Positions 21,864 through 28,600 of a stretch of DNA of 64,000 nt are shown here, piece after piece. Position 1 is the stretch's first letter, and each line of letters opens with the position of its first letter. The notes below the pieces were generated by a model. The model made no database searches. It saw only the letters and a program-made list of their open reading frames with translations, and was not told where the DNA came from. The translations under genes were made by a program, and so were the position numbers. Source of the DNA: Eledone cirrhosa (Eukaryota); contig OZ024740.1 in NCBI GenBank assembly GCA_964016885.1, forward strand, positions 264,368,001 to 264,432,000, written 5' to 3'.

Positions 21864-21912
<49 letters not shown>

Positions 21913-22083
21913 TATAGATAGGTAAATATACACGGGTGTGTATGATTGTGTATAGAAGATTATATTAATAAGAGGAATTCCAACTTTGTCTGATTTACTC
22001 GTTTTATTTACAATCCTTTAAAATATATATAATGGTATTATAATGAAATAGTATGATAGAATATTAAATTCTAAGTGTTAATT

Positions 22084-22120
22084 GAACAAGTACTTTCATG
22101 CTTTCGCAATCTTCAGGTTC
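22084..22120 (-). ncRNA. Minimal type I hammerhead in the 3' pLTR of the intact Neptune element
   Basis: gaac-CUGAAGA-uugc gaaa gcau-GAAA-gua-CUU-guuc. Confidence 0.75.
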
Positions 22121-22496
22121 ATGATATGTGGTGACAGTCGAGTTTGCAATTTTCAACTGTAATGAGATGGGTAAATTTCCTACCTTTTATACATTTTATA
22201 CAGAGAAAAGTGGCTCCAGAATGCAAAGCCCTGTAAACTGTATTTCGACCAATCAGTGTGTAGTTTCACTGAATTACTACAGCTGATTGGTTTAAGCGTC
22301 ACGGCTGGTTGAGCATGCTAACGACCAATAGTCATATCCAACGTATCAATTGTTTTGCTTTTTTGAAATGATGAAAATAGCATTTTCTATTAATCATCAC
22401 CATCAACATCACTTTTATTATTATTATTATTGTTGTTGTTGTTGTTGTTAGTGGTCGTGGTCATAGTGGTAGTAGAAGTAATACCCCTAGGCGTTA

Positions 22497-24683
22497 TTAT
22501 TGTTCATTTAGCTTGGGTTTGAATTTATCAATAAAATTCTTTTCTTTGATTTTTCTCTTGATTTCATTTGGGCTGTGTAATTTGTAGAATGGGAATATTA
22601 TAAATATTCCCTGACCACATGTTGCCAGGTGGCCGCTTAGGGGTATCTGACGGACATTTGGGTCTCTGATTTGTTGACGGTGTACCCGTGCACGTTCCGA
22701 TAGTGCATTTCCAGTTTGACCGACATATAGTTCTTCACAATTCGGGCATTTAATGCAGTAAATTAGATTTCTGCTTTTGCAGTTCATATTTGCATTTGTG
22801 AATATTTTTCCAGTTTTTGTTTTCATATATTGACCGGTGTGTATGGATTGACATGTGCCGCATCGATTATCATTGCATTTAGATACAGTGAATGATTGGT
22901 CTTTGTTGTTAAGGTCAAACTTTGCTTTTGTTAGCAATTGCTTCAAATTTTTTGGCTGTCTTTTACTAAGAGTCAAAGATCGATCTGTGATTAAGCCTTT
23001 TAATTCATTACTTTGAGCAATGATCGGTAGGTTTGCTTTGGCAGTGTTGAAGATATTCTGGTGACATGGGTTGTGTGTCATTATAAATGGTATGACCAGT
23101 TCTTGGTTTCTTCTTCTTTGGGTTGTTCTAAGTTGTTGTATAGGTATTTTTATAGCCCGCTGTATGCCATTTTCTATAAGTAGAGATGGGTATTTTTGTT
23201 TGAGCAAAAATTCTCTTAGTTCTGTTAGGCGTTTGTACCTGGTATTCGTATCTTCTACAATGGTACAAATTCTTCTGGCTAGGCAGTATGGGATGTTGCG
23301 TTTTGTATGAGGTGGATGGCACGACTTAAAATTCAGATATTGATGGGTGTCTGTGTGTTTATAATATATATCCGTGGTAATGGTGGTGTCGTTTTTGATT
23401 ATCATTATATCTAGGAATGGTAATTTGGTCCTACTCATCTCTTTTGTGAATTGGAGAGATGGGTGTAGGTTATTCAGGAGGATATTGAACTCATCCAGAG
23501 TATCTAAAGATTCTGTCCAGATGATGAAACAGTCGTCAAGGTATCTCTTCCAAGATTTTTCAATGTACTTTCTAAAGTCAGTACTATATTTTTCCTCTAT
23601 TTCTTGGTAGAGTTGTTGTTCTAAGTATCCCATTACAGAGTTCGCGTAAACGGGAGCAAACTTCGTTCCCATCGCTGTGCCTCTAATTTGGATGTAATTC
23701 TTTCCATTGAAGAAGAAAGTGTTGTTTTCCAGAATAAGTTTAACTGCGTCTAATATAAATGGCGCTGTGAATCTAATGGGAATCACTTCTCTATGTTTTT
23801 CCACCCAGTATTTAACCGCCTTTATTCCTAAATCATGTGTAATGTTGGTGTAAAGGCTTACCACATCAAAACTGAGTAGAAGTGAATTCGTTTCCGTGGT
23901 TTTGGGAAGATGGGACAGGAAGTCGATATCATCCCGGATGAAACTGGGTATGTGAATACATAGTGGTTTCAAAATAATGTCAACAAAATTGCTTAGACGG
24001 TGAGTGGGGCATGTTGAACCAGCTATAATAGGTCTAAGTTTTAAGTCTTTTGGGTGTAATAATTTAATGTACTCACTGTTTTGTTCTCTTACTGCCAGTT
24101 GTATTTCTTTTGACTTGTGAACTTTCGGTAGGCCATACAGGTTGCTGGGTTTCGGCTCAAAATTGGTGATGTAGTCTCTTTCCTTATCAGTAAATGAGTT
24201 GTGGTATTTTGAAGCCAGGTTGTTGATCTTCTTCATGATGTTGTGGTCTATATTTGACGGTATTTCATTATAGAATGTTGTGTCTTTCAGTTGTTCCTCA
24301 ACCAAATCCTTGTAGTATTCAGTATCCATTATAACAACTGCACCCCCTTTATCTGCTTGTTTAATTATTATTGTTTTATCATTTTGTATACGTTTAAGTG
24401 CAGACATTTCTGATTTGTTAATGTTTGGCCTAACATTAGTATTATGTCTAAGAGGAAATTTAGACAGGATGTCAATGTATTGGTCGAGATAGATATTTCT
24501 TCCTTTTGGCGGAGTGAAATTTGATTTATTCTTTACTAGTGATTCATCACTCTCATTATTTTTATCAGCGAAGAATTCTACAAGACGTAATTTTCGACAG
24601 AATTCTTGGGTATCCTCCTTCAGTTCTTGGTGGTTGACTGTTGGAGTCGGTGTGAATTTCAGTCCTTTTGACAGAATTTGCAT
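22497..24683 (-). CDS. PLE reverse transcriptase + GIY-YIG endonuclease (728 aa from first ATG; frame open upstream to 24824)
   Basis: IIIKQADKGG, LYGLPKVHK, LRPII, FDVVSLYT, GTAMGTKFAPVYAN, RYLDD, LPFLD, linker CNDNRCGTC, LIYCIKCPNCEELYVGQT. Confidence 0.95.
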   Translation of the reverse strand: MQILSKGLKFTPTPTVNHQELKEDTQEFCRKLRLVEFFADKNNESDESLVKNKSNFTPPKGRNIYLDQYIDILSKFPLRHNTNVRPNINKSEMSALKRIQNDKTIIIKQADKGGAVVIMDTEYYKDLVEEQLKDTTFYNEIPSNIDHNIMKKINNLASKYHNSFTDKERDYITNFEPKPSNLYGLPKVHKSKEIQLAVREQNSEYIKLLHPKDLKLRPIIAGSTCPTHRLSNFVDIILKPLCIHIPSFIRDDIDFLSHLPKTTETNSLLLSFDVVSLYTNITHDLGIKAVKYWVEKHREVIPIRFTAPFILDAVKLILENNTFFFNGKNYIQIRGTAMGTKFAPVYANSVMGYLEQQLYQEIEEKYSTDFRKYIEKSWKRYLDDCFIIWTESLDTLDEFNILLNNLHPSLQFTKEMSRTKLPFLDIMIIKNDTTITTDIYYKHTDTHQYLNFKSCHPPHTKRNIPYCLARRICTIVEDTNTRYKRLTELREFLLKQKYPSLLIENGIQRAIKIPIQQLRTTQRRRNQELVIPFIMTHNPCHQNIFNTAKANLPIIAQSNELKGLITDRSLTLSKRQPKNLKQLLTKAKFDLNNKDQSFTVSKCNDNRCGTCQSIHTGQYMKTKTGKIFTNANMNCKSRNLIYCIKCPNCEELYVGQTGNALSERARVHRQQIRDPNVRQIPLSGHLATCGQGIFIIFPFYKLHSPNEIKRKIKEKNFIDKFKPKLNEQ

Positions 24684-24730
24684 TTCATCATTGTCAAGAT
24701 CTCTTTTAGATAAATTAATTATTTTAGGAT

Positions 24731-25282
24731 CTACGTGTACAGCTGTTTTGGGTATGTTTCCTCCTGGAGTTTTTCTTTTTCCGGTTTTTGTTGTCCTGAC
24801 GTTAAAAAATGAATTTTTCTCTGTTCAGGATTTATATTCCTGTTGGTGTTCGCTTGATGAACTTTTGGTCGTGATATTATATTTGGTTTCGTTATGTGTT
24901 TTGTCCTATTTTTGGTATTCTGTATATTATTTTTCTTCCTGTTAGCATTATTTTTAACAATCTGGGAAAATGACCTAGGTTTGCTTTCAGGTTTAGATCG
25001 TTTTTTCGTCCAGTTTCTTGTGGGCAATCTCTGTTGAGATCTTGAGAGTGATCTGGTTATTCTACGTTTTGTTTCCACATTCCTTGTTGGTTGTCTCTGT
25101 TGAGATCTTGAGAATGATCTCCTGGTTTTACTACTTCTCATGGTCTGGTCAAAGGAATACCTATCGTGTTTGTGCTTTTTGTTCATGTTGTGTGCGATAG
25201 GGTGTTTTTGTAGAAAAAGCGAAGAGTTATTACCGTAGTTCTTCTTTGATTCAAGGTAAGGTGAGCGTTTGTGTTGGCACAT
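24731..25282 (-). CDS. Upstream basic Arg/Ser/Lys-rich ORF of the Neptune element (5'-truncated)
   Basis: 183 codons open; RSFSRSQQR repeats; overlaps the RT frame across a -1 slippery site. Confidence 0.55.
   Translation of the reverse strand: MCQHKRSPYLESKKNYGNNSSLFLQKHPIAHNMNKKHKHDRYSFDQTMRSSKTRRSFSRSQQRQPTRNVETKRRITRSLSRSQQRLPTRNWTKKRSKPESKPRSFSQIVKNNANRKKNNIQNTKNRTKHITKPNIISRPKVHQANTNRNINPEQRKIHFLTSGQQKPEKEKLQEETYPKQLYT
24803..24809 (-). promoter_or_regulatory. Candidate -1 ribosomal frameshift slippery heptamer U_UUU_UUA
   Basis: In phase in the upstream ORF (caT TTT TTA acg); the -1 frame is the RT frame, which is closed by TGA at 24825-24827 just upstream. Confidence 0.6.
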
Positions 25283-25699
25283 ATATATATATAAATGTTA
25301 TCTTATCACTGCATCAAATAATGACGTATTATCTTCGTTCTTTTCCGTTCTATGCCAAAGAACGTTTCGACGAACCGAAGTATCGTCTTCCTGTCTTCCT
25401 TCGGTTGCAACATTTTTTGAAATATTTACTTCTGCGTTCACAGATTGAATTTTTTTGTTTTCAGAAGATCCCTTTAAGGGTGAAAGCAGCGATTCTTTGC
25501 TTAAACTTTAATCTGTTATTTTAATAAATATATATATGTATATATTAATTTGAGTATGTCTTAGTTAATATACCGACACTTCAGTATGCAGAGTAAAACA
25601 CTCAACGAAGTATGTAGTTGGGTCTGTTTACTCCGGAGTATATTTAACAACAAATAGTGTAACTCAACCGATTAAAATTACCTTCGTTTACACATATTC

Positions 25700-26765: not shown

Positions 26766-27379
26766 TACTTCCTTATATGGGAATATTGTAGTTGTCAAGA
26801 GGATTGGTTAACATTTGTTGTAAACACAAATATGTCTATCATGGCATTTGGTGGGAGGTAGGTGTGGCTGAACTTGCTTGTAGAACAATAGGGGAGTGAG
26901 TTGAGCGGTCAAGCGTTGAAATTGATATGTATACAACAGATTCTAAGGATAGTGTATGAAGTGGAAATATAAAATTAGATAGTGAGAAATGAATTTAAAA
27001 AATCACAATGCTATCTTACAATTACAGGTTAATAAGTTGAGAATAGAAAAAAACTTGTAGAAAAAACTTGTAGTACCAGAACTGATACAGAATTAAAGGG
27101 GTTTAACAAGTGTGCTATAAGTAGTTAGTAACACGTATTAGGCCAATTCTATCTTAAAATTACAGGGGTGGGGTAACTGATGCTAGAGAGGCCCGATGGG
27201 CTGCATCGAAGTAGGCGAAGGGGAAAAGCAGACGAGGAAGAAAATAGAGGGTGGAAGGAAGTGATAGGATGAGACAGGTGGAAGAAGACAAAGAGGAAAA
27301 GGAAAGGAAAGAGATACATTACCTAAATAAGCTGGGGTTTGCATGCGGTTACCAGTTCCTTTATCTTGTTCAGGAGTTG

Positions 27380-28600
27380 GTCCTTCGAAAACAGCATACC
27401 AATACCTACAAGTTTCCCCCTATGGAGGGCAAACGAGACACAAAATTCATCCAGTTTGACATAGAGAGTTACTATGCATCTATTACCTCACCTCTCCGTA
27501 CGGCCGCCATGGATTTTGCCGAAACACTCACACCCATCACTGAGCAGGAAAGAAATATCATTCTCCACGCCAGGAAGACAGTCCTACTTTTCGACAACTC
27601 TAACTGGATAAAGAGAGCTCCCGACTCCCCCTTCGACGTCAGTATGGGCGCGACGGATTCGGCCGAGGTCACAGATCTTATAGGATTATTCCTACTATTT
27701 AAACTCACCGAAATGTTTCCTGCATTCGGCGGTGGATTGTACCGGGATGATGGGCTCCTCATCCTCAAAGGGTACAACCCCAGTAGTACAGACCGGGTCC
27801 GTAAACAACTACTCAACTTCTTCCGGGACTGGGGATTTAAAATCACCCTACAAACGTCCCTCACCCGAGTCAATTTCCTGGACGTTACCCGTAACCTCGA
27901 AAATGATCTGTACTACCCATACAGGAAACCAAACGACAACCTGCAATACATCCACCGCCGCTCTAACCATCCTACAAACATCACCAATAACCTGGAAATA
28001 TCCTTTTATCCAGCTTCCCTTAGCGGATCCAGCTGGCGACACCGCCGCTGACGCAACGTACCGTGGTTCAATCCTCCCCATAATGCCGAGGTGGCAACAC
28101 GTATCGGGAAAATCTTCTTTAGACTCCTCAAAAAACACTTCCCACTACAACACCGCTACCACAACATAATCAACAAAAACACCATCAAAATTTCCTACAG
28201 CACCACACGTAACTTCGCACAAAACATCGTCTCTTCAAACAACAAAAAATTCAACCCCTATGGAAGAAATAACCTAGACATCAGTGGAGAGCCGACCAGG
28301 AGGTGTAACTGCCCTGATAGATCTACGTGCCCCCTCAACAACAAATGCCGAGAACATAACGTGATCTACCAGTGCAACGTGAGGCCGGACACCTCCAACA
28401 AATCTTATATAGGATTAACCGCGTGTGACTTCAACACCCGGCTCTACCACCACCGACAAACTTCCCGAAACCCGGTCCGGCGACATACCACTAAACTTTC
28501 GGGCCATATCCGGGACCTCCAAGATAATGATATAACCTAAAATCTCACTTAGGGCTTACTGACCAAAGCTAAATCTTACACCGGAGGACTTACCTCGCCT
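27380..28600 (+). pseudogene. Disrupted Naiad-type RT + GIY-YIG ORF
   Basis: ORFs 27251-28051 (first ~40 codons come from the inverted pLTR) and 28091-28540; internal deletion and stops. Confidence 0.88.

Follow-up and report, generated by a model that had tools for sequence, protein, structure and literature searches.

The locus described here raises the question of how an endonuclease-bearing Penelope-like element (PLE) makes its reverse transcriptase (RT), when the RT frame overlaps an upstream frame (ORF1) in the -1 phase and has its first ATG downstream of an N-terminal motif. The window analysed is a stretch of 64,000 nucleotides from Eledone cirrhosa, and unprefixed positions are those of the window. 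How PLEs with an endonuclease (EN+) make and package their enzyme is a largely unknown field, and the elements are catalogued as single-ORF. They are so described in passages of Craig et al. 2021 (PMC8557442), and part of a review (PMC6431247) divides PLEs into single-ORF elements with EN and two-ORF elements without it. Excerpts of two further papers report esterase ORFs in Neptune-like PLEs (PMC5408684) and, for a Fundulus Neptune, ORF1 and ORF2 that do not overlap, frameshifting being unmentioned in the excerpt (PMC12602865). The Fig. 1 legend of PMC8557442 notes that PLE ORF1 may be separable by a frameshift with a pseudoknot, in a clade left unnamed there. A frameshift-separated ORF1 has therefore already been noted for unnamed PLE clades; the 10-codon stop spacing described below is new here. 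We take the frameshift in Fig. 1 of Craig et al. 2021 to refer to the endonuclease-less Athena/Terminon PLEs, in which Arkhipova et al. 2017 reportedly described a frameshift. Among the partial texts covered by our literature search, no -1 frameshift in EN+ PLEs was found, and Penelope is unmentioned in the sections seen of a frameshifting review (PMC5009743); Arkhipova et al. 2017, Fig. 1 of PMC8557442 and Repbase may cover Neptune.

The element and its two reading frames

From its sequence the element is assigned as a young, high-copy Neptune-type Penelope-like retrotransposon with two overlapping reading frames. It has a PLE-type RT (GxKF, DKG, YxDD) with a C-terminal GIY-YIG endonuclease. 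The RT-EN frame is open for 775 codons on the minus strand (24824-22497) and gives RVT_1 and GIY-YIG matches; KIINLS lies at 24725-24708, the first ATG at 24683, DKG at 24353-24342 and YLDD at 23543-23532. The CX4CxxC linker (22877-22851, minus) reads CNDNRCGTC, fits the CX2-5CxxC of the Neptune clade and precedes the start of the endonuclease (22763-22746, minus). By eye, the RT motifs and the long stretch up to the next Cys are nearer to Neptune than to Nematis alignment rows. The 3′ UTR or pseudo-LTR (21900..22496, minus) ends at a TA run at ~21900; it holds two TATAAAA boxes (22200-22194 and 22191-22185, minus) and, by motif scan and fold, a core resembling a hammerhead ribozyme (CUGAAGA ... 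GAAA and a short stem II; 22084..22120, minus). An Rfam search returned no match to this core at E<=1, and otherwise gave TA-repeat and chance matches only. Around the core, contig depth at L019:115-342 (window ~22190-21960) is ~100-fold above that of the ORFs in runs X1 and X3, which suggests a very abundant short non-autonomous repeat with the same region.

Genome copies are >99% identical to the window copy over 25280 to ~21900, and at least 150 genome matches to the RT N-terminus are found at 98-100%. The window copy is 5′-truncated at 25280, beside a (TA)n run (25281..25297); other copies align only to 25280 and then have ~800 further ORF1 bases. In full-length copies ORF1 is 449 aa long and starts at an ATG with favourable sequence context; 10 of 30 loci hold it, e.g. 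L019:421-1770. An upstream ORF is thus present, as an earlier note on this DNA had claimed, but its extent was misjudged, since the window holds only the last 182 codons (24731..25279, minus; residues 268-449 of 449, with the basic tail). The ATG that appears to start it (25282-25280) is created across the TA-run/element junction.

The tandem unit of the element is 4,211 bp, and in tandem copies the pseudo-LTR, with its TATA boxes and hammerhead-like core, directly precedes the ORF1 of the next copy. Tandem or inverted insertions that form pseudo-LTRs, together with 5′ truncation, are as in EN+ PLEs. TA runs flank both ends of the window copy and also lie beside several other copies, in keeping with a (TA)n preference. 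The copies are scattered over many contigs and carry GIY-YIG, which separates them from Athena/Terminon elements (no endonuclease, telomere attachment). In the parts of PMC8557442 that describe it, the Neptune clade shares with our family the RT, the CX2-5CxxC linker, the C-terminal GIY-YIG, TA targets and tandem pseudo-LTR copies; it is, however, single-ORF by description, like EN+ PLEs in general, whereas the window's family has two overlapping frames. A broken fragment of a second PLE is also present in the window (27248-28540, plus strand), with RT motifs FIQFDI and FDVSMG and no Pfam match. These motifs resemble Hydra clade rows in a portion of the supplement of PMC8557442.

The two frames overlap at 24824-24731 (minus), where RT is in -1 relative to ORF1, and ORF1 ends with TAG at 24733-24731 (minus). 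Around the junction the ORF1 codons are CAT TTT TTA ACG, which contain T_TTT_TTA in phase (24809-24803, minus); this slippery heptamer encodes Phe-Leu and is the predicted -1 shift site. The RT frame is closed by a TGA five codons ahead of it (24827-24825, minus), identical in 30/30 loci. Past the heptamer, 23 ORF1 codons and the stop (24731..24802, minus) are read in the RT frame too and lack stable structure: over the first 103 nt after the heptamer, folding is no stronger than in shuffles (z +1.3). Reading and folding the sequence and translating the frames thus bore out what the earlier note had described here, namely the phase-correct heptamer, the exact -1 relation with its closing TGA, the position of the first ATG and the lack of a strong downstream stimulatory structure. 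Its statement that the PLE N-terminal motif stands ahead of that ATG holds for KIINLSKRDLDNDE only; GLKF lies downstream of it.

Structure prediction makes residues 1-260 of ORF1 all-helical (pLDDT 90.5). Because this conserved N-terminal half is combined with a K/R-rich tail, we infer a role in RNA packaging, as for gag or LINE ORF1. ORF1 matched no Pfam family above cut-off, a Foldseek search of PDB and BFVD gave no match at E<=0.001, and the structure had no match in the Atlas (best 0.76); by these searches it is unrelated to HIV-1 gag. Its relatives number 555 at E<=0.001 among 50%-identity representatives, and an ORF1 query against metagenome contigs found nothing. We note that P0003, a Mytilus gene model ending in the conserved ORF1 domain, is probably a mis-joined element fragment.

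The junction in the family and in its relatives

Exact junction matches across the genome have T6 in 312 of 317 cases, T7 in three and T5 in two. The family therefore does not consist of one continuous ORF from which this copy departs by a 1-bp indel, the outcome that would have overturned the earlier note. In all three T7 copies the RT frame breaks off after 68-273 codons. The junction is identical in each of the best 30 DNA matches, and junction-free queries gave 90 loci (duplicates retained), 89 of which span the junction, 88 with intact T6 and one with a substitution but no indel. Four contig runs listed no joint or indel at the junction, such runs being unable to show splicing. The comparison confirms the two-ORF junction as the design of the family, not damage, as far as sequence can tell.

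Five families in the genome, the window's plus B, C, D and E, all have T_TTT_TTA with RT in -1. The site reads T_TTT_TTA_G in families B to E, and their ORF1 is 25-40% identical to the queries used. Family B (e.g. L308, L328-L335) has a C run of 7 to over 20 bases 3′ of the heptamer. Fused ORF1-RT frames in some family B copies arise from this varying C run, not from the T run, and the variation could be mutation or assembly error.

Metagenome and genome contigs yielded 139 related loci, 56 of which hold the RT N-terminal motif. An upstream ORF of at least 95 codons stands in a -1 relation in 17 of these and in a +1 relation in two. Heptamer and -1 overlap are kept together in 13 of the 17 (T6A in eight, T6G in three, TTTAAAC in two; overlap 10-94 nt), which answers the check on related elements that had been proposed. 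The remaining -1 loci are L193 and L207, with other heptamer-like words, L155, with an overlap and no heptamer, and L231, a weak match. L472 has an ORF1 homologue in -1 relation with only T_TTT at the junction. An in-phase T6R occurs once among 6,128 other ORF1 codons (17 elements), so that its occurrence at the junction is more than chance. In most elements the RT frame opens 0-15 codons ahead of the heptamer. Fifteen related loci are ordinary single-ORF elements without the ORF1 domain. A quick tree (SH-aLRT) of the retrieved loci only, with no named reference elements, places those that carry ORF1 together with the window's family.

A second two-ORF, -1 group (L148, L151, L156, L169, L182) has a different and longer ORF1 (500-770 aa). 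Linker and GIY-YIG are seen in L156 and L169; in L148 and L182 the stop comes immediately after TTTAAAC. Near the ORF1 end, four of this group have a DG(V/I)H word with no Pfam match, presumably SGNH-esterase-like. Animal PLE contigs were also observed in bacterial genome bins, with their proteins named bacterial (L201-L259; P0010, P0014, P0070, P0095). RT queries against viral contigs and the P0010 query against genome contigs found nothing; the GLKFTPTP pattern returned from genome contigs chance bacterial matches and L201 again (5 of 94 loci checked). A pattern search for diverged junctions was discarded, as its matches were a 20-bp satellite, which forms a large array at G000:C1:279.47-279.70 Mb (L065-L090).

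At the protein level 151 ORF1 homologues were examined, 86 of them of at least 330 aa and in separate 50%-identity clusters. Phe-Leu occurs within the last 45 residues in 72 of the 86, in a tail that is otherwise unalignable; adjacent windows gave 5, 6 and 13 and shuffles a mean of 6.3. None of K, Q, E, M and W, which make up 21% of those tails, ever stands directly before Phe-Leu; their codons cannot end in T, and their absence is as expected if the codon there must do so to form the heptamer. G, E or D follows Phe-Leu in 50/72. Phe-Leu is missing from the other 14. ORF1 ends with Phe-His or Phe-Arg in place of Phe-Leu in P0206, P0228, P0239, P0252 and L472, possibly through single-tRNA slippage on T_TTT. 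Lengths of the best 120 RT homologues run from 517 to 817 aa (search range up to 1,357); none of these proteins has the ORF1 domain, and their start positions are scattered, with no common start Met at the N-terminal motif.

Expression of the RT frame

A programmed -1 ribosomal frameshift yielding an ORF1-RT-EN protein of ~1,194 aa is very probably the explanation of the junction. Ribosomes on ORF1 would slip back one base at U_UUU_UUA to give a minor ORF1-RT-endonuclease fusion, composed of 426 ORF1 and 768 RT-EN residues. Most ribosomes would stop 23 codons later, releasing ORF1 alone in excess over the enzyme. Frameshifting predicts that ORF1 is open and in phase to the heptamer and that RT is open only from the heptamer, and the data match; the junction has an in-phase X_XXY_YYZ heptamer in a conserved -1 overlap. 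That two canonical heptamers, T6R and TTTAAAC, occupy one place argues for frameshifting rather than splicing or a peptide motif. Across the sequences compared, the -1 layout is real, conserved and clade-wide, and the gag-pol-like two-ORF design put forward in the earlier note gains support from heptamer, phase and overlap kept across 20-52% RT identity; that the design extends to the whole clade had escaped that note. HIV-1 gag-pol uses U_UUU_UUA, often followed by G, with a structural ORF upstream of the polymerase. Heptamer and order are alike here, but the stem-loop stimulator is absent. The frameshift-separated PLEs, as far as passages of PMC8557442 describe them, likewise have a coiled-coil-like ORF1 overlapping the PLE RT frame; our family differs in its C-terminal GIY-YIG and Zn-finger linker and in that neither a pseudoknot nor a conserved hairpin was found. 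If an ORF1 present throughout the clade (555 clusters at 50% identity) is joined to RT by a -1 frameshift, the annotation of these elements changes and RT-only constructs miss the natural N-terminal half.

The main rival is splicing, in which the T run would serve a 3′ splice site as its pyrimidine tract and the spliced mRNA would skip ORF1 and place RT-EN in frame with an upstream AUG. Most relatives' sites do read TTTTTTAG-R, which is splice-acceptor-like, in the window's family a CAG follows 7 nt later in the same phase, and the pseudo-LTR offers a donor-like site (22183) preceded 11 nt upstream by an ATG of matching phase; PLEs are also stated, in part of PMC8557442, to retain introns, the 5′ region included. 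That ATG and donor, however, fall within the two TATA boxes and thus ahead of the inferred transcription start. No equivalent of this pair is found in L121, L124, L129 or family B, and those of C and D are not common to copies, while L124, L139, L156, L169, L148 and L182 lack an AG of the required phase among the first downstream AGs. No conserved splice donor/acceptor pair that could join the frames was found in the DNA; an intron between them was the second outcome that would have spoken against the earlier note. The T run is without any C in 16 T6 families, and splicing does not need an open ORF1 or a phase fixed across an unalignable tail, as seen in the 72 of 86 homologues above. We regard splicing as unlikely.

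Very unlikely, in our judgement, is separate synthesis of RT-EN, either by reinitiation after termination or by leaky initiation, close to the ORF1 stop at a non-AUG codon or at the AUG at 24683, for which LINE-1 ORF2 is a precedent. The ORF1 stop is suitably placed in the window's family, three codons short of KIINLS, and falls inside the K-I-I codons themselves in families B, C and E. In the 10-codon elements, though, it is a long way ahead of the motif, the first AUG would drop the conserved N-terminal motif (it is 15 to 114 codons in, in several relatives), and the invariant phased heptamer is left unexplained. Slippage of RNA polymerase or RT on the T run, with gain of an extra U, or rare T7 copies supplying the fusion in trans, could be read from the three T7 copies and the fused copies of family B. 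The RT frames of the T7 copies are broken, however, the family B fusions come from the downstream C run, TTTAAAC sites have no long run, and six T is short for polymerase slippage; we consider this route highly improbable. The reading in which this copy alone lost 1 bp from an otherwise single ORF has next to no probability given the T6 counts above: single-ORF Neptune-like relatives do exist, but they lack the ORF1 domain.

Stop-codon spacing and a candidate stimulator

Textbook -1 signals carry a 3′ structure. No conserved RNA structure follows the heptamer here (mean z -0.3, median 0.0 over 15 sites; +0.9 for the window's family and -0.95 to +0.96 for families B-E). A stem-loop or pseudoknot 5-9 nt downstream was not seen, with a strong nearby hairpin only in L123, and a scan for simple H-type pseudoknots was empty for 14/15 sites. 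The fold scores and the scan thus rule out a conserved hairpin or pseudoknot as the stimulator.

The distance from the Leu codon to the ORF1 stop is more regular. In the 72 proteins it is 9 codons once, 10 in 21 and 11-40 in 50, and never below 9, where database protein ends may be contig ends. In DNA, 6/16 T6R families, family D among them, have the 10-codon spacing and none a shorter one; in the two TTTAAAC elements it is zero, and in the window's family 23. Further on, the stop rate in the ORF1 frame is 0.07 per codon. When the proteins are collapsed to 17 lineages at 40% identity the spacing is at least 9 in all (P ~1e-4 at a stop rate of 0.06); at 35% identity four lineages are left and P is 0.11. 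The 10-codon cases are not confined to one side of the ORF1 tree, and L151 and L139, both without a match to this ORF1 domain, are among them. Among 64 shorter fragments outside the main set Phe-Leu is found in 17, five of which have it 2-6 residues from the end and look like truncated proteins.

The stimulator we favour for relatives with the stop 10 codons on is a stop-paused ribosome. Tentatively, a ribosome paused at the ORF1 stop, 10 codons past U_UUU_UUA/G, may drive the -1 slip in a large clade of animal retrotransposons. A trailing ribosome would collide with the paused one while on the slippery site, 10 codons being one eukaryotic ribosome length. In the window's family, with 23 codons, U6A may act largely alone. 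If the collision model is true, enzyme output depends on ribosome load and termination speed, and the elements hold a natural collision-programmed frameshift; with its structure-free signal and 10-codon spacing, the clade offers a natural sequence set on collisions as a eukaryotic recoding stimulator.

Sections of Smith et al. 2019 (PMC6815119) describe E. coli reporters in which a ribosome stalled at a stop codon stimulates -1 slippage of the trailing one, best at 9 codons. Their heptamer likewise sits one ribosome length before the stop with no RNA structure, and the optimum, by the same counting, is 9 codons against 10 here; that system is engineered and bacterial, whereas ours would be natural and eukaryotic, with 23 codons in the window's family. 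A 10-codon ribosome footprint is used in yeast modelling (PMC6750593, in part), and SARS-CoV-2 frameshifting is tuned by stop position via another route (PMC8168617, in part). At the level of titles and abstract starts, our literature search did not find a natural stop-codon-collision frameshift signal. Against the collision model, a mammalian termination preprint (PMC12458348, in part) reports that ribosomes seldom stack at stops and pause less where C-rich sequence precedes. Moreover, 50/72 elements and the window's family are not at 10 codons, and the model by itself leaves the absence of shorter spacings unexplained.

Terminal Pro and a C after the stop slow termination, and their distribution gives two hints in favour of the model. 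Pro is among the last two residues in 10/21 ten-codon proteins and in 1/51 others (Fisher 6e-6, post hoc), with P ~0.002 after collapse at 45% identity and no significance at 40%. C follows the stop in 4/6 ten-codon and 0/9 other elements, also post hoc. A second peak at 19-23 or 31 codons was considered as a longer ribosome queue and set aside: the conserved K-I-I codons dictate where ORF1 stops in families B, C and E, and all members of the 22-23 group belong to a single clade.
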